A stretch of 64,000 nucleotides of DNA, taken from Octopus vulgaris (Eukaryota). A program made the position numbers and the translations under genes. The stretch spans positions 13,454,001 to 13,518,000 of the forward strand of contig OX597815.1 in NCBI GenBank assembly GCA_951406725.2. Direction: 5' to 3'. Below are positions 400 to 61,830 of the stretch, one piece after another (the first letter of the stretch is position 1; each line of letters starts with the position of its first letter). The notes beneath the pieces were generated by a model, which saw only the letters and a list, made by a program, of their open reading frames with translations, did not search any database and was not told the origin of the DNA.

Positions 400-648
400 A
401 AATAATAAATGTTAGGGAATAAATCCAAATTTACAGGGAAAAAAATCAGATTTAGGATTAAATCCAATTTTATAGTAAAATATTATAAAATATTATTAGA
501 GACAAAACCACTATTTTGCAAAACAAACAAGGAAAGACTTAATCAATACATAAAATTTTAATAAATAGTCAAAAAAACCGCCACTACAATTGTTTCTTAT
601 CTTGATCGACAATCTTCAGGTGGACTTCCAATAAGTCAGTTTCAAATT
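400..648 (-). mobile_element. TA-flanked non-coding element resembling a Penelope-like pLTR, carrying a hammerhead ribozyme
   Basis: Bounded by (TA)n on both sides and contains the 581-623 hammerhead. Related segments (tagagacaaaaccactatt...gacttaa..caatacataaa; ttaggga..tttacagggaaaaa) recur at about 3920-3990 and 4385-4535. Confidence 0.6.
581..623 (-). ncRNA. Minimal type I hammerhead ribozyme, canonical core
   Basis: Minus strand reads CCAC CUGAAGA UUGUC gaucaa GAUAA GAAA CAAUUG UA GUGG: stem I CCAC/GUGG, stem II UUGUC/GAUAA, palindromic stem III, GUA triplet. Confidence 0.85.
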
Positions 649-8640: not shown

Positions 8641-8657
8641 TAAGTGACTAACTAGAT

Positions 8658-8814
8658 ATCTTAATAATTACGATGCGCACTCTTCTCCCATCACATCTCT
8701 GTCTATCCATCTTTTTTGTTCTTTTTTCGTTTCTGGTTTTCTCTTCCATCCTTTACCTATTCTTTTCCTATCCCCTTCACCGTTCCCTTCCCTCTCTCTC
8801 CTTCTTTCTCTCTC

Positions 8815-8871
<57 letters not shown>

Positions 8872-9460
8872 ATTCCACATTGACTCTCTCGTCGCTGGCA
8901 GGTGACGAAAGGCGATCTATTTTCATTCTTCCATTTCCTTCAGAAAGACAGGTGTTTTTACGTGTCTCTTCTCATAGCTCGTCTTTCCAGCGTTCATTAT
9001 ATATTTTTTTACATCGTCTTGGCTTAACAACCCTCACCGTTTGTTTTAATTGTCTTGTTCTCATTGTCCTGTTTTTGTTACCACTTTCACCCTCCGCAAA
9101 AAATCCCAAATTTTATTTAATTTGCTTTGCGGGAGGCACTGTTTAAACGAAGTCGTGTATTGTCCTTATCTTCGTAAAGCGGAGTATACGAAATAGGGAC
9201 AAATGATGAAAATGAATGGTCTTTATGTCGCATGTCTCGTTTCTCTGCTACTTTTTTTCGTTGTTCGAAAAAAGTTCGTTTCCTATGTTTTGTTTTTATG
9301 TTTTCGTTTTCTCATTGTGTCTACGTTTTTTGATGTCCTGTACCCATATATGCATGTATATATATGTAATTATATACATATATGTGTGTATGCATATATT
9401 TGTATATTTTATAAATATGTATATATATGTAATTATATGTATATATATATATATATATAT
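8658..9460 (+). mobile_element. Non-coding repeat family E, copy A, with a structured RNA motif at 9091-9240
   Basis: Colinear with 60960-61680 (reverse) from tcttaataattac to gatgtcctgtaccc, and with about 41800-42605. Confidence 0.75.
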
Positions 9461-9575
9461 ATGCAATTATAAAGTTAATCCAACCATGAAAACACAAAGA
9501 GAATACACAGCAATGCGAGGACGTTGAACTAGTATAGTGTTATTAAACGCTCAGGAAAGGAAGGAAAGAAGGAGG

Positions 9576-10192: not shown

Positions 10193-10461
10193 CATATGTA
10201 TATATATATGTATGTTCATATATATGTGTATATATGTTTATAGATAGATAGATAAGTATTTGCAGCATATGAATATTGAAGCTCTTATCAAGTTAAGTTT
10301 AGTTTGTCTCACAAAATCTTCGTCATTATAACCATCATGTTAAATTGCATAATCAAACTTGTTGACACAGGTAAATTGGATTTTTACTGAAAATTTGTAT
10401 CGTGATTTCTATTTTATAATGTTGACGAAGCTTCTCCTGTATGGATCACTTATAATTCTTA

Positions 10462-10859
10462 TTCTTTTCTAGTCTAGGCCCAAGCTCCGAAATTTAGGGG
10501 AGGGGGCCAGTCGATCAGGTCGACCTCAGTACGCAACTGGTATTTAATTTATCGAACCCGGAATGATGGAAGGCGATGTCGACATCGGCAGAATTTGAAC
10601 TCAGAACGTAATAACAGACGAAAAACCCATTTCTTTACTACCCACAAGGGGCTAAACACAGAGAGGACAAACAAGGACAGACAAACGGATTAAGTCGATT
10701 ACATCGACATCAGTGCGAAACAGGTACCTAATTTATCGACTCCGAAAGGATGAAAGGCAAAGTCGACCTCGGTGGAATTTGAACTCAGAACGTCAAGGCA
10801 GACGAAATACAGCTACGCATTTCGCCCGGCGTGCTAACGATTCAGCCAGCTCACCGCCG
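10462..10859 (-). mobile_element. SINE family A tandem: full copy plus headless copy
   Basis: Full copy at 10630-10859 with tail type 1, joined to a headless unit with tail type 2. Confidence 0.9.
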
Positions 10860-11654: not shown

Positions 11655-11732
11655 ATTGAGTTGTGGGGTATCGCACGAGTGGGATTATATAAGAAAAAAG
11701 GTTTGAAAATGCAATTTAAACGATGTTTATTT

Positions 11733-11773
11733 ACTTAACCGGTTTCACTCTTTGGTAAAAGATTGTCAAAAGT
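11733..11773 (-). ncRNA. Hammerhead-like motif with U3-A8 core, left arm
   Basis: Minus strand reads ACUU UUGACAA UCUUU uacc AAAGA gu GAAA CCGG UU AAGU. Confidence 0.55.
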
Positions 11774-11787
11774 TACATTTAAGGAAA

Positions 11788-12016
11788 CATTGAATAATAT
11801 GGGTTCAAAAAAAGTTTTTTACATAATTGTCACATTGAATATTATGCATTCAAAAAAGTTTTTTACATAATTGTCACATTGGATATTATGGGTTCAAAAA
11901 AGTTTTTTACATAATTGTCACATTGAATATTATGCATTCAAAAAAGTTTTTTACATAATTGTCACATTGGATATTATGAATTCAAAAATGTTTTTTTATA
12001 CATAATTGTCACATTA
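11788..12016. repeat. 39-40 bp minisatellite, about 5 units, mirrored at about 13270-13500
   Basis: Unit cattgRatattatgNNttcaaaaaagttttttacataattgtca with alternating gg/ca variants. Confidence 0.95.
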
Positions 12017-12577
12017 TTTGGGAAAATTTGGCAGAAAAGGATAAAACAAATATATTATTGGGAATTGGTTGCGTTAATTATTGGTTGTCGCAAATTGTCA
12101 CATTACATGTATATATATACAATCTTTGGTATATATATACAGCGTTTTGACAGCAAAAATTAAAATGGCTTTTTTGTACATCTCAGAATATTTTAAGTAT
12201 GTTTTTACTGACCTGTCAGTATTAGCAGAAAGGCTGAACTGAGAGAACAGAAGAAGTAGCCAATGTGGTGTATACTTCCCCTTTATGCATGAATGATTTT
12301 GGGGTTATCAGGAGGTTAGTATGCGGGTGTGAATAGATGTGTCCGTGCCTGCTGGTCAGACAGCGTCTGCTTGTCACACACATATATATACACACAAACA
12401 CACACACACACAACAACACACACACACACACACATAGTATACAAACACACACCACATACAAACAACACACACACACACAGAACACACACACCCACACACA
12501 ACGCACCCACATATATCACATATTATAACATGTATCTATATATAACATACACAGATATATAACACACATACACACAC

Positions 12578-12608
<31 letters not shown>

Positions 12609-13514
12609 CACACGCACACATACATACATAATATAAATATCACACAAATACACCTAGCATATATATACACACATACAATACACACATACAGCATGTAAGT
12701 AATATATATACACAATATATGCATGCAATATACATACGTAATACATATATATAATATATATATATATATAGACAATGCATATACATATATACACATATAC
12801 ATATAAATAGTGTTTACATACACATACATAGATGTACCACATATACACACAACACACATACATACAATGCATACACATACACATACGCATACATATAATA
12901 TATATATACACACACACACAAATAAGATACATACACACACAATGCATACATATATATACACGCAATGCATATACATGTATTCATGCACATATAGCACATT
13001 AGAGTATAGAAGTATACACCACATTGGCTACTTCTTCTGTTCTCTCAGTTCAGCCTTTCTGCTAATACTGACAGGTCAGTAAAAACATACTTAAAATATT
13101 CTGAGATGTACAAAAAAGCCATTTTAATTTTTGCTGTCAAAACGCTGTATATATATACCAAAGATTGTATATATATACATGTAATGTGACAATTTGCGAC
13201 AACCAATAATTAACGCAACCAATTCCCAATAATATATTTGTTTTATCCTTTTCTGCCAAATTTTCCCAAATAATGTGACAATTATGTATAAAAAAACATT
13301 TTTGAATTCATAATATCCAATGTGACAATTATGTAAAAAACTTTTTTGAATGCATAATATTCAATGTGACAATTATGTAAAAAACTTTTTTTGAACCCAT
13401 AATATCCAATGTGACAATTATGTAAAAAACTTTTTTGAATGCATAATATTCAATGTGACAATTATGTAAAAAACTTTTTTTGAACCCATATTATTCAATG
13501 TTTCCTTAAATGTA

Positions 13515-13555
13515 ACTTTTGACAATCTTTTACCAAAGAGTGAAACCGGTTAAGT
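13515..13555 (+). ncRNA. Hammerhead-like motif with U3-A8 core, right arm
   Basis: Reverse-complement copy of 11733-11773. Confidence 0.55.
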
Positions 13556-13596
13556 AAATAAACATCGTTTAAATTGCATTTTCAAACCTTTTTTCT

Positions 13597-13643
<47 letters not shown>

Positions 13644-17210: not shown

Positions 17211-17642
17211 AGGCGGCGAGCTGACAGAAACGTAAGCCCGCCGGGCGAAATTCTTAGCGGTATTTCGTCTGCTGGTACGTTCTGAGTTCAAATTCCGCCG
17301 AGGTCGACTTTGCCTTTCATCCTTTCGGGGTCGATAAATTAAGTACCAGTTATGCACTGGGGTTGATGTAATCAGCTTAATCTGTTTGTCTGCCCTTGTT
17401 TGTCCCCTCTATGTTTAGCCCCTTGTGGGCAATAAAGAAATAAGGCACCTTAGTACGTCGAGCGAAATGCTTAGTAGTATTTCGTCTATATTTACGTTTT
17501 GAGATCAAATTCCGCCGAGGTCGACTCCGCCTTTCAACCTTTCAGATTCGATTGCTTACGAACCAGTTGCGCACTGGGGTCGATCTAACTGACTGCCCCC
17601 ATCTCCCCCAAAATGTCGGGCCGTTTGCCTAGAGTAGAAAAA
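17211..17642 (+). mobile_element. Two adjacent SINE family A copies, tail type 1 then tail type 2
   Basis: aggcggcgagctgacagaaacg..gttcaaattcc..gtgggcaataaagaaata, then a second body ending gcctagagtagaaa. Confidence 0.9.
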
Positions 17643-29800: not shown

Positions 29801-30057
29801 AAAATTCTAAGCAAAGTAAGTGTTACATGGAAAGTTTTCTGAAATTGCAATTCCGTATTATATGTATGTCCTTGTGTCTAAGTGTTACGTCTGTGGAAGT
29901 CTGCGTGTGTGTTTGTGTGCGTGTGTGTTTTTGTTTGTGCGGGTGTTTATGTGTGCGTATACGCTGTTGAGTAGGTGAGTAAGCGCATGACTGCGTTGAA
30001 GGGAATTGTGATTGAAACAGTATACTACTGTGTTGATAGATCGAACACAGCTTATCA

Positions 30058-30473
30058 TTTTGTTTATTACCTACAAGGGGCTAAACATAGAGAGGACAAA
30101 CAAGAACAAGCAAACGGATTAAGTCGATTACATCGACCCCAGTGCATAACTGGTACTTAATTTATCGACGCCGAAAGGATGAAAGGCAAAGTCGACCTCG
30201 GCGGAATTTGAACTCAGAACGTAACGGCAGACGAAATACCTATTTCTTTACTACCCACAAGGGGCTAAACATAGAGGGGACAAACAAGGACAGACATAGG
30301 TATTAAGTCGATTACATCGACCACAGTGCGTAACTGGTACTTCATTTATCGACCCCGAAAGGATGAAAGGCAAAGTCGACCTCGGCGGAATTTGAACTCA
30401 GAACGTAACGGCAGACGAAATACCGCTAAGCATTTCACCCGGCGTGCTAACGATTCTGCCAGCTGGCCGACCT
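30058..30473 (-). mobile_element. SINE family A tandem inside one 14-bp target-site duplication
   Basis: aacacagcttatca at 30044 and 30474; internal period about 183 bp. Confidence 0.93.
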
Positions 30474-31562: not shown

Positions 31563-31569
31563 ACATATA

Positions 31570-31738
31570 TATTTCTTTACAACCCACAAAGGGCTAAACA
31601 CAGAGGGGACAAACAAGGATAGAGAAACAGATTAAGTCGACTACTTCGATCCCAGTGCGTAACTGGTACTTAATTTATCGACCCCGAAATGACGAAAGGC
31701 AAAGTTAACCTCCGCGGAATTTGAACTCAAAACGTAAT

Positions 31739-31741
<3 letters not shown>
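31570..31741 (-). mobile_element. SINE family A, headless unit
   Basis: Matches 30058-30240. Confidence 0.88.
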
Positions 31742-31826
<85 letters not shown>

Positions 31827-41223: not shown

Positions 41224-41544
41224 TTTTATATTTCGGAATGGTCATTTTGCCAGTTTAGCCAATAAGAACACACGCACTATATATTAGGTGTTATTTTACT
41301 TCAGTGTTATTTATTTTTTACGTTAATCTATTTGTGTCTCTCCTTACTAACCGTCAGCCATTTTGTATTTCTATTGTATGTCTTCATTTGCGCATGCTTA
41401 TATCTCTATGTGCGTCTATGTTTACTTAGTGTGTGCATGTAGGGATGCCTGTAATATTTGTATCTTCTGTTTATATACGTTCATGTAATTTGTATTTTGT
41501 TTTTGTTCTTGTTGTTTTTGTTAATTCTTATTTTTATATATATA

Positions 41545-42605
41545 AAAACTGTACTGGGAGAAGAAGAAGAAACGAAAAGAACTCGTTGAGTTCTGCGTCT
41601 ATTTGTGGTGTCTTGTACTCACGTATATATATTTATATATGCATGTATATATACATGTAGATGTAGGTACGTACATATATGTATGTATGTATGCATATAT
41701 TTTATTTATTACATTATTGTATGACTGAGCGCCCTCGCGTCGATTAGATTCGTTTCGTTTCGTTTCTTCTTCTTCTCCCAGTACAGTTTTTATATATAAT
41801 TATGACGCGAAACTATATACCTCTTTGCTTAACCTTCCCTTCTCTCCCTTTCTCTCTCTCTCACTCCTCCGCATCTCTCTCACAGCCGTTTGTCTTCCTC
41901 TATCTCTCTCTCTCACTCCTCCTCATCTCTCTCACAGCCGGCCAAATACTTCCTTTTGCATGCGGCCTCCCTAACTGTAAACACACGGTTTTCTTGCGCT
42001 GCTTGAATCTCTCCTCGTCTAGGAAAAAAAGGCCCTCTTTGGTTGTTTTCTTGTTTGTTTTTATTTCTTGTATTTTTTTGTAATTGTATTTTTATTTTGT
42101 ATTTTATTTTGTATTTATTTTGTAATTTTATTTGGATCGTTTTTACGTCCTGTTTGTGTCACATTTTGTTCTTTCCTTGTTTTTACCCCTCTGCGAAGTA
42201 ATTTTCTTTAATTTCTTCGCAGGAAGGGCTGGTTCGACGAGTCGTGTTCAGTCCTCACCTTCGAAACACGCTGGAGTTGAACTAAGGACAGCTGATGAAA
42301 AGGTTTTTCCTTGTGTAGTTTGTCTTGTACTCTGTTTTTTCGTTGTAAAAAAAGGTCCTTTCCATGCTTGTTTTTACGTTTTCGTTCTCGTTGAGTTCTG
42401 CGTCTTTTTGTGGTGTCCTGTACTCTCGTATATATATTTATATATGCTTGTATATATACATGTAGATGTAGGTACGTCCATATATGTATGTATGTATGTA
42501 TGCATATATTTTATTTATTACACTAGTGTATGACTGAGCGCCCTCGCGTCGATTCGATTCGATTTGTTTCGTTTCTTTTCGTTTCTTCTTCTTCTCATAG
42601 TATAG
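41545..42605 (+). mobile_element. Family E copy B: short inverted end, partial 3' copy, then longer copy
   Basis: 41545-41580 is the reverse complement of the 3' terminus, 41582-41790 duplicates 42386-42605, and the structured motif is at 42190-42325. Confidence 0.8.
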
Positions 42606-42622
42606 TTTATATATATATATAT

Positions 42623-58835: not shown

Positions 58836-59763
58836 TAAGTCTAACCTCATAATGATTGACAATTTTATCAATATCAACAATATTTGTTTAGATTTCAGGC
58901 ACCTACATGCTTTAATATAAAATTTTCTATTTATATAGTATTTCTAACAGCCAGAGATACGTATCCTTTGTAATCATAAATAGAATTGATTTTGAAAAGG
59001 TTACCAAAGAGTAAAATTTTGCAGTGACATATGTAACAAGAAATTATAGGTTCTTGCCAATGACTAGTAGGAAAGCTGCTTATATTCTTATATCCTGTAT
59101 TGAAATCAATAAGCGTATCACATACAATGGCATAGGTGATACTATTTTAACCTTTTGGCTAAATAGTTATCTTCAGACATTTTAAAGTAGAATACAGTGG
59201 AAGAAGTAAATATATGCACGCTTCTGTTTATACGATAGAAGGCAATGTTAAACTAAGCGATAGCCTAGTTGTCCATGTCTAAGTCAAAGCGTCCAGTTCA
59301 TGTGGCGTGAGATGTGAGGCGTTTAAAGAGACGTGTACTTGCTCTTCGTATGAAAGTGAGAAATTACTAAAAGGTTGTGCTGTCATTATGGTTGTTTGTC
59401 AGTAACACAAATTAGCCACATTTTTCTTTTTCTAGATACATCTTTATATGTGTCAAGAGAGAATATACAACTCCTTCTTAAAACCAAATCTTAAATACGT
59501 TTTAAAGAAATAATCACCGTCATTAAATTGCTGCTCCATGCAACCTATGTCAGGAGTAGAATATGATGAGTCGTACCTTTCTCAAATAACAGTCTACTCT
59601 ACTTAAATGATGTTAATATTCACTGGAAAATATAGTTTCGAAACTGTAAGCAATGCACGCACGTCTATGGTTAACATCATGCAAAGCTACAAGAAATTTG
59701 CGATCTAGCGTTAGTTTTGCTCTCCGCTTCTGGACACACACACACATCGATATAACGGTAAAA

Positions 59764-59939
59764 GTCTGACGTTACGTTCTGAGTTCAAATTCCGCCGAGG
59801 TCGACTTTGCCTTTCATCCTTTCGGGGTCGATAAATTAAGTAGCAGTTACGCACTGGGGTCGATGTAATCGACTTAATCCGTTTGTCTGTCCTTGTTTGT
59901 CCCCTCTGTGTTTAGCCCTTTGTGGGTAATAAAGAAATA
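59764..59939 (+). mobile_element. Young headless SINE family A unit with a perfect 15-bp target-site duplication
   Basis: gatataacggtaaaa at 59749 and 59940. Confidence 0.95.
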
Positions 59940-60893
59940 GATATAACGGTAAAACTTACTGCAGGAGACTAGACATATTCAAGTTCAATGCAACAAACCT
60001 CTAGGTATTAGCATTATTACATTGCTTAGGTGAAGAATAAAAAAAAATGTGTTCATTTTCAATAATAATTCCATATTCTGCTAAACAGATGAGGAAGTTT
60101 TCTACTTGATAGTCAGACAAATTACTAGAAATAACATCTAAGTCACCCCTCCATGCTTTAGATAGGCAAGGCTATAACCGATAATTCAGTAACCTATTTG
60201 GATTTTTTTCAATATAATTGAATCAAAAGCTAGTAAAATGTCGATTATAATGTCCACTCGAATAAGTTTTGGACAAGAGTTAACCACCGCCACCAACACC
60301 ACTACTGCTAAGTAGAAGAACAACTACAAGAGCCAACCATATAGAGCCCATCACTTATGTGATTTGAAACACACCTGATATACATACTGACCGCAAATCA
60401 AATAATGACCGACATATGACTTATAAGCTAATGGGATATTATGAATTTTGACACACAGTCAAATGTTATTGACCCGTTTGAAATTATTACTAGTAATCAA
60501 TCCTTTGTATTCTGATTCCCACTTCGGGAATAAACGCGAAGTGATTCACTGAAAGCCTATATATCATATTTCAAAGTATATATACTTGTTTGCCACACAG
60601 ATGTACGATGCGCTACTAGATTTATTTTTCTGGCTTTCTTCTCTGTTAATCAATGATCTATGTAAACGGATGTACAAAATGTATGTAATTATATGAATGT
60701 GTATATAAGATTTGGTGTTGTGATTTTTGCAAACAACATCAGTGAAATCATGTACAAGTATACATACACATATCTAGATATCTATATAAGTGTATATGTA
60801 TATGTGTACATTTGCAGACACAACCAGGCATAAATGTCTATATATATATATATATTTCAATTAACACACACACACTCACACGCATACACACAC

Positions 60894-60959: not shown

Positions 60960-61680
60960 GCGCCCACCTACATACATATTTATACATACATGCATATATG
61001 GGTACAGGGCATCACAAGACGTTGAACACAATGAGAAACGAAAACATAAAAGCAAAAACATAGAAACTAATGTTTTTCAAACAAGGAGACACAGAACACA
61101 GAATATTTCCCTTTTTCAGTTGTCCCTGTATCGTCTACTCTGCATTCCGAAGGTAAGGACAAGACGCGACTTCGTTGGAGCAGTCCTTCCCGCAAACCAA
61201 ATTAAATATAATTTCGGATTTTTTTTGCGGAGGGTAAAAATGGTAACAAGAACAGGACAGTAAGAACAAAACAAGACTGTAAAAACAATAAAAAAGTAAA
61301 AACAGTAAAAGACAGAACAATGAGAATAAAACAGTAAAAACAAACGATGAGGGCTGTTAAGCCAAGACAATGGAAAAAATTATTTTGAACGCTTAAGGAG
61401 ACAGTGTATGAAAGAGACAGAATAAGCTGCTCTGGTCTTGGTGAAGATAGCAGTTGGAAAGACGGCTTCATTCTGATCGCGTGTCAATGACGAGAGAATC
61501 GAGGAAGAGGAGGAGGAGAGGAGAAGAAGGAGTAAGAGAGAGGGAATGGTGAAAGGGAGAAGAGAAGAATATAGAAGCGTGGGAGAGAAAACCAGAAAGG
61601 ATGAAAATCAACAGAAGGAGATAGATAGACAGAAAAGAAATAGTAAGGGAGAAGAGTGTGCTTTGTAATTATTAAGATAA
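60960..61680 (-). mobile_element. Family E copy C
   Basis: Reverse-colinear with 8658-9460; structured motif at about 61085-61235. Confidence 0.8.
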
Positions 61681-61778
61681 AACTTTTTGTGAAAAGGATA
61701 CGTGGCGTTCGATCATATAATAATATAAATAATATATATGTGTGTATGTAGGTGTGTTTTTGTATATATCTATATCTA

Positions 61779-61830
<52 letters not shown>

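Follow-up and report, generated by a model that had tools for sequence, protein, structure and literature searches.

The RNA motif found in three copies in the window (the whole stretch of 64,000 nucleotides that was analysed) is a hammerhead-type RNA and not a new ribozyme class. In the better-preserved genomic copies, a stem III strand, the GUH triplet, a 6-nt stem I strand, three nucleotides, a stem II strand and GAAA follow one another from 5' to 3' and are succeeded by the second strand of stem III, a linker, the second strand of stem I and CUGAnGA. We put at roughly three in four the probability that this S-G-C core, with its upstream stem II and with stacked helices at A9/G10.1, lets the well-preserved copies self-cleave and process retroelement RNA, as judged from the sequences. 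Self-cleavage of such copies, taken apart from its role, is likewise likely, and the secondary structure is very probably correct. The original prediction had described permuted hammerhead words on this strand; the strand was right, and so was the permutation, which is the S-G-C block order. Its statement that the motif could not be matched to a hammerhead did not hold, since, with a non-circular order admitted, no core nucleotide and none of stems I-III is missing. Of the new or rearranged ribozyme that it envisaged, the rearrangement stood and the new class did not. HDV-like, twister and pistol readings, which it had also failed to match, were rejected by eye, as their consensus features did not agree with the order of the helices.

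The three copies lie where they had been reported and in the reported orientation: A at 9089-9214 (+), B at 42186-42303 (+) and C at 61235-61108 (-). Copy B, a split type-SGC-like hammerhead motif, is decayed, with U changed to A at base 2 of stem I and with helices X and P4 weakened, but retains an intact core, which A and C do not. It begins with the 5' strand of P4 (42186-42190), whose partner (42299-42303) directly follows CUGAnGA. Hairpin a (42191-42222) follows with no spacer to P4 or to G10.1, the first base of the stem II 5' strand (42223-42227, partner 42258-42262). The 5' strand of the tether helix X occupies 42229-42235 (partner 42279-42285), and block S (42243-42254) consists of a stem III strand (42243-42247), H17 (42248) and a stem I strand (42249-42254); by analogy with hammerheads, the predicted cut falls between 42248 and 42249. 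A 3-nt linker and block G (stem II 3' strand, GAAA and stem III strand) together span 42255-42270, and the 3' strands of X and stem I, CUGAUGA (42292-42298) and the 3' strand of P4 complete the motif (42279-42303). The host element of copy B (41529-42610, +; 3' limit approximate, read from the sequence) comprises an inverted piece (41529-41576), a partial upstream unit (41582-41798) and one full unit of ~800 nt ending in (TA)n. Copy A is decayed to AUGAUGA and GUAA in the core, has its predicted cut at 9159/9160 and sits in a unit of the C/A subfamily (8657-9462, +). Copy C, with a core decayed to CUGAAAA and GGAA and a predicted cut at 61163/61162, lies in an element at 60966-61830 (-). Alignment of 98 matches from 90 loci placed A and C, as decayed members, in one subfamily group and B in another; A and C are therefore not independent lineages, and several of the differences between them reflect decay. 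All three window copies are probably inactive. Rfam gave no match at the motif: all 110 matches in the window were repeat-driven, as were the best 150 of 184 matches for eight loci with better-preserved copies, with no hammerhead among them.

The motif belongs to a large repeat clade with thousands of copies in a 2.8-Gb animal genome. DNA searches with C, B and A returned 2812, 1594 and 3118 first-look candidates, 40 of which were scored for each query. A pattern running from block G to block C (GAAA to CUGAnGA) had 1852 exact genome matches versus three for its reversed control, far more than chance would give, and a pattern excluding the known stem I had 251 versus 56. This second pattern and follow-up searches uncovered five further families, D, F, G, H and M. 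The seven families (B, C, D, F, G, H and M; 13-89 copies each) were aligned from copies spanning the whole motif, and helices were located on column-majority letters. B, C, D and H, and F, G and M, probably form two related groups, so that the seven do not represent seven independent origins. Five candidate sets of 1-3 decayed copies each (L310/L315/L405, L408/L409, L301/L406/L407, L410 and L411), probably further S-G-C families or variants, were left out of the counts. The core was intact in 78/89 copies of B, 32/76 of C, 21/31 of D, 20/20 of F, 12/13 of G, 15/32 of H and 6/26 of M. A descriptor of the full architecture recognised 99/163 cores of the same genome versus 97/1980 with shuffled flanks. 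Pattern loci from elsewhere served as controls and not as a survey; among the matches listed (119 metagenome, 121 viral and 120 prokaryote), there were zero, one and two cores, respectively, and the descriptor recognised 0/119, 0/121 and 1/120 (1/360 overall). The lone match, in GC-rich DNA, is regarded as chance.

Across the families, the motif reads P4, hairpin a, stem II, X, block S, 2-5 nt, block G, X', stem I', CUGAnGA and P4'. CUGAnGA, GAAA and GUH are present in all seven families, and A15.1-U16.1, C15.2-G16.2, G10.1-C11.1 and the GUH triplet hold in 7/7. The triplet of family B is mostly GUU, which is a slower cleavage triplet. Stems I and III, which flank the predicted cut, were paired in 42/42 and 28/28 cells, with covariation. 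The corresponding values were 34/35 for X, 34/35 for hairpin a, 31/35 for P4 and 31/35 for upstream stem II, and the helix counts were matched by only 1-20 of 5040 permutations of partner strands. In six of the seven families, the stem II partner is the strand upstream of block S. The strand after CUGAnGA forms no stem II in D, F, G, H and M and pairs instead with the P4 strand that opens the motif on its 5' side. The upstream stem II strand directly follows hairpin a, 1-3 nt before X, and X' ends 0-2 nt before stem I'. With P4' placed directly after A9, the spacers between P4 and a and between a and stem II measure 1 nt in G and 0 nt in the other six families; stems I and II are 2-5 nt apart, counting 6 bp for stem I and 5 bp for stem II. 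Every helix sequence has turned over among the seven families.

Family F is the weak case, as its upstream stem II strand pairs in 54% of cells and falls within a hypervariable G/C run; both ends of the one full-length F copy pair well there. In F copies such as L807-L836, the stem II 5' strand between a and X is a complementary C-run in some and a partner-like G-run in others, for which template switching, G-run instability or assembly error are candidate causes.

In a 16-row alignment of the B/C clade, the hammerhead model paired 90.5% of its cells and 12/36 pairs carried double changes, neither value being reached in any of 500 shuffles, which ignore relatedness. Helix positions had been picked by eye ahead of the counts. 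Five of the seven X pairs carried double changes in the same clade. The originally proposed helix a is real and covaries, and helix e is real, forming the inner part of the 6-bp stem I. Helix b was also confirmed, as stem II, and covaries across the other families, but is invariant within the clade of the window copies. Helices c and d did not survive: they can be drawn in single copies but lack covariation support and take up bases that stems II, III, I or X require. Their cells were paired at 66% in the 16-row alignment, and 467/500 shuffles scored as high, in a control that applied the register of B to d; within its own family, d paired in 85% (C) and 72% (B) of the cells. The proposed switch between d and e is unsupported because d is not conserved. 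That prediction lacked three helices: stem III, X (7 bp) and the closing P4. Outside family B, most helices received low pair probabilities in nested-only folding, which does not represent pseudoknots.

The spacers around P4 and hairpin a suggest how a core broken at A9/G10.1 might be held together. P4 and hairpin a would stack coaxially, leaving a nick where A9 leaves and G10.1 enters; since the spacers are 0-1 nt, such stacking would keep A9 and G10.1 side by side. X would sit on stem I, as does the interaction helix of type SGC. Between stem III and X, a bulge or a loop resembling a kink-turn may supply the required bend. At this junction, D and H have a loop (a 3-nt bulge, tandem G-A and U-U), which we take to match the kink-turn consensus, and F and M have bulges of 3-4 nt.

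Families B, C and H are carried by non-coding units of ~740-985 nt, and such units hold the window copies, for which the original assignment to a non-autonomous retroelement was correct. Single, 5'-truncated and tandem units are found, as are units with inverted 5' pieces, and their ends lie at TA-rich points, as in D; their spacings were 790, 882 and 985 nt, about 740 nt (L097) and 803-805 nt. No coding frame was found in them. No consistent link to an autonomous partner of B, C, D and H emerged when Penelope-like and LINE fragments of the fetched loci were used in BLAST and profile searches. Direct upstream matches at L331 and L645 were rejected as partners, since they break off within a domain and resemble insertions. 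Penelope-like coding fragments of two endonuclease types (L095:7617-9998, - and G000:C4:101168595-101169554, -) were seen as separate insertions in (TA)n-rich DNA near family B copies.

Families F, G and M sit in the sense orientation in the 3' UTR of RT+RLE elements, presumably 'HERO-like'. Among copies matching the family regex, an RLE frame lies directly upstream in sense in 10/22 (F), 9/11 (G) and 3/3 (M), and BLAST placed one upstream of 6/26 M loci. The single reading frame of these LINEs contains Pfam RVT_1, with CCHC and PD-(D/E)xK-like motifs read from the translation. Among seven protein homologues of the RLE region, two came from NCBI-annotated fish genomes and one was a further fish protein. 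Two full-length LINEs bear the ribozyme at both ends, with a second 3' end placed directly before the 5' UTR: a G copy at C6:75.38 Mb (G000:C6:75378500-75382900; about 600 nt plus 3.65 kb) and an F copy at C1:67.36 Mb (L830/L829, G000:C1:67360367-67364316; ribozymes 3920 nt apart). L359, a third G copy and almost full-length, is truncated at its 5' end and was uninformative. The terminal direct repeats with the ribozyme in the F and G LINEs resemble the pseudo-LTRs of Penelope-like elements. At the 3' end of family F, a second GAAAC word and a short hairpin, about 55-75 nt past CUGAUGA, precede the fixed end; together they are like a type I G/S block but have no stem I pairing. R2 is an RT+RLE non-LTR retrotransposon with a self-cleaving HDV-like ribozyme at its 5' end. 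In the LINEs described here, too, a ribozyme precedes the 5' UTR, and a single reading frame encodes RT and RLE. They differ from R2 in that their ribozyme is of the hammerhead kind and has its place in the 3' UTR, with a repeat at the 5' end in the two full-length copies. If they cleave, the terminal ribozyme repeats of RT+RLE LINEs would suggest that a circular-RNA route is not confined to Penelope-like elements.

The 5' ends of insertions were mapped against the predicted cut for copies chosen by anchors about 115-145 nt downstream. In family B (96 anchor matches, 70 fetched loci and 73 distinct anchored copies), 12/73 ends fell at 0..+10, specifically at +6..+10, versus 1.35-1.54 expected (p = 2e-8 to 9e-8, or about 1e-6 to 5e-6 after correction for 54 windows). 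Among the first 70 of 839 family C matches, ten ends fell at 0..+10 versus 1.3-1.9 expected (p = 1e-6 to 3e-5), a pile-up to which TA microhomology between the family C linker and the (TA)n target may add. The first 30 of 967 copies of the LINE family F had no end in this interval (0.2-0.7 expected), and 29/30 read through the predicted site. Most ends lay at +6..+10 and not at 0, with X-drop alignment breakpoints uncertain by a few bases. One locus, L369, lacks exactly positions 0..+48, and the same joint recurs in run X15, which need not be independent. The 5' boundary of the fold was closely preceded by a second, weaker cluster (13/35 ends at -61..-110, some of them alignment breaks).

Cleavage after GUH at successive copies would yield unit-length RNA. 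Part of this RNA may stay linear, and would give insertions starting just behind the cut; another part may be ligated into circles, and would give copies longer than one unit. The odds of circular intermediates are about level. The read-through in F and the copies of more than unit length would both be accounted for by a template re-ligated into a circle, but also by template jumping or an inactive 3' copy.

The pile-up could also arise if the fold, though derived from a hammerhead, has lost its cutting activity and persists in the retroelement RNA as a structure that binds protein or blocks nucleases, with the 5' ends marking a reverse transcriptase stop or an exonuclease stall. The interrupted core, the reverse transcription of nearly all F copies through the site, the peak 6-10 nt behind the cut and the weaker cluster upstream of the fold are all consistent with this explanation, which we nevertheless consider unlikely. 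The catalytic bases and GUH have been kept in 7/7 families despite the turnover of the helix sequences, a reverse transcriptase should stall where it first meets the fold, at the 3' edge, rather than midway through it, and L369 rejoins exactly at the predicted cut. It is less probable still that the fold is right but its cutting conditional, with a slow monomer and a need for a protein or for two RNAs or tandem copies that exchange strands. Penelope-associated hammerheads that cleave as dimers are known, the units do occur in tandem and the 3' copy of the LINEs is mostly read through; on the other hand, all six helices close within 88-126 nt of a single copy with conserved spacers, and inspection by eye found no conserved palindrome across the families.

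Cleavage by single well-preserved copies, the reading preferred here, finds its closest parallel in the type SGC hammerhead (HRIMA-1), for which cleavage was demonstrated by Eckert et al. in 2023 (PMC10085705; statements on this source refer to the available part of its text). That RNA has the same non-circular S-G-C order, typically with a 3-nt linker between stems I and II, and a full core. It also has a helix on stem I, the other strand of which lies about 1 nt after the stem II strand; X occupies the place of this stem I/II interaction helix and tethers the far sides of the two stems. The motif described here differs in that block C is split, that the stem II and tether strands lie upstream of block S and that P4 and hairpin a stand between A9 and G10.1. 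Formally, it would correspond to type SGC joined end to end via X and reopened between A9 and G10.1. In type SGC, the stem II strand follows CUGAnGA after 0-1 nt, whereas here the three downstream registers paired in 18, 20 and 16 of 35 cells, no better than permutations (612-2420 of 5040 were as high). A downstream stem II was rejected, as it fails in D, G, H and M, with only 0-1 of 5 pairs in G; B and C could form a weak one (G-C, G-U, G-U and G-C). The motif works like type SGC but is not a member, as it lacks an uninterrupted block C.

An ordinary type SGC ribozyme, with stem II formed by the G-run one base past CUGAnGA and with the upstream strand and P4 as inhibitory pairings of an RNA switch, is most improbable: the downstream strand of B and C can make its four pairs after one extra base, and an SGC-1 RNA tested by Eckert et al. 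likewise has one extra base after CUGAUGA (oligonucleotide table, PMC10085705), but that strand cannot make stem II in D, G, H and M (16-20/35 overall), G and H already speaking against it, the upstream strand and P4 covary, and the partner of X lies upstream, with no downstream tether strand.

Unlike the classical types I, II and III (CGS, GSC and SCG), which are circular permutations of one another, the split motif follows the order S-G-C. The available text of Eckert et al. (PMC10085705) distinguishes six block orders, holds the link between CUGAnGA and stem II to be unbreakable and states that alignments of known hammerheads never have more than 1-2 nt inserted beside CUGAnGA; the activity of a core broken at A9/G10.1 would thus be without precedent in the literature consulted. 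The published SGC descriptors demand stem II right after CUGAUGA(U)G, treating block C as uninterruptible, and would therefore miss these RNAs. Small core insertions of 1-2 nt (2a/2b, 6a and 13a) are tolerated according to the available text of Perreault et al. 2011 (PMC3088659), a term search of which gave no mention of 'additional stem' or 'stem IV'. A literature search that covered few subscription papers retrieved no description of a helix inserted between A9 and G10.1, of an S-G-C hammerhead in an animal genome or of hammerheads in the ends of RT+RLE LINEs. The SGC RNAs of Eckert et al. came from metatranscriptomes, none from the genome of a known organism as far as the available text goes (PMC10085705), whereas those described here are genomic repeats of an animal.

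The non-coding carriers resemble non-LTR retrozymes and the hammerhead-bearing repeats of Penelope-like elements, which in the available parts of the sources also form non-coding tandem units with one hammerhead each and for which circular RNA intermediates have been proposed (PMC7229834; 10.64898/2026.07.22.740005; 10.1101/2021.04.23.441226). The 5' truncation, inverted 5' pieces and microsatellite targets are further points of likeness to Penelope-like elements. Retrozymes, as described there, carry type I hammerheads in units of 150-450 bp, unlike the split S-G-C form in units of ~740-985 nt. Expression as unit-length RNA, in linear and in circular form, is a feature of retrozymes. What is novel is the split between A9 and stem II and the presence in LINE ends. 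Whether this amounts to a seventh hammerhead wiring, active though broken at A9/G10.1, missed by descriptors and present both in retrozyme-like repeats and in RT+RLE LINEs that would replicate via ribozyme-cut circular RNA, is in our judgement evenly balanced on the sequence evidence. Covariation in several families supports a broken CUGAnGA-stem II link, which departs from the published scheme, and the motif adds the genome of an animal to the sources of non-circularly permuted hammerheads. If these RNAs cleave, standard searches have overlooked a whole set of retroelement ribozymes, and claims that some retroelement clades 'lack' hammerheads would need re-checking.

The window also contains a candidate ordinary type I (C-G-S) hammerhead at 578-624 (-). 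The original prediction placed the motif where sibling families have a hammerhead, and this ordinary type I hammerhead near 619 (-) fits that remark. Twenty distinct type I candidates were seen in the fetched loci, several of them apparently in Penelope-like ends. A long, near-perfect inverted repeat spans 11686-13602 and resembles a foldback or MITE-type element; its arms, with 44-nt tandem units, measure about 600 nt and flank a spacer of 730 nt. A SINE-like repeat of ~184 nt, partly in tandem, recurs at 10439-10858, 17212-17594, 30052-30471, 31565-31759 and 59750-59944.
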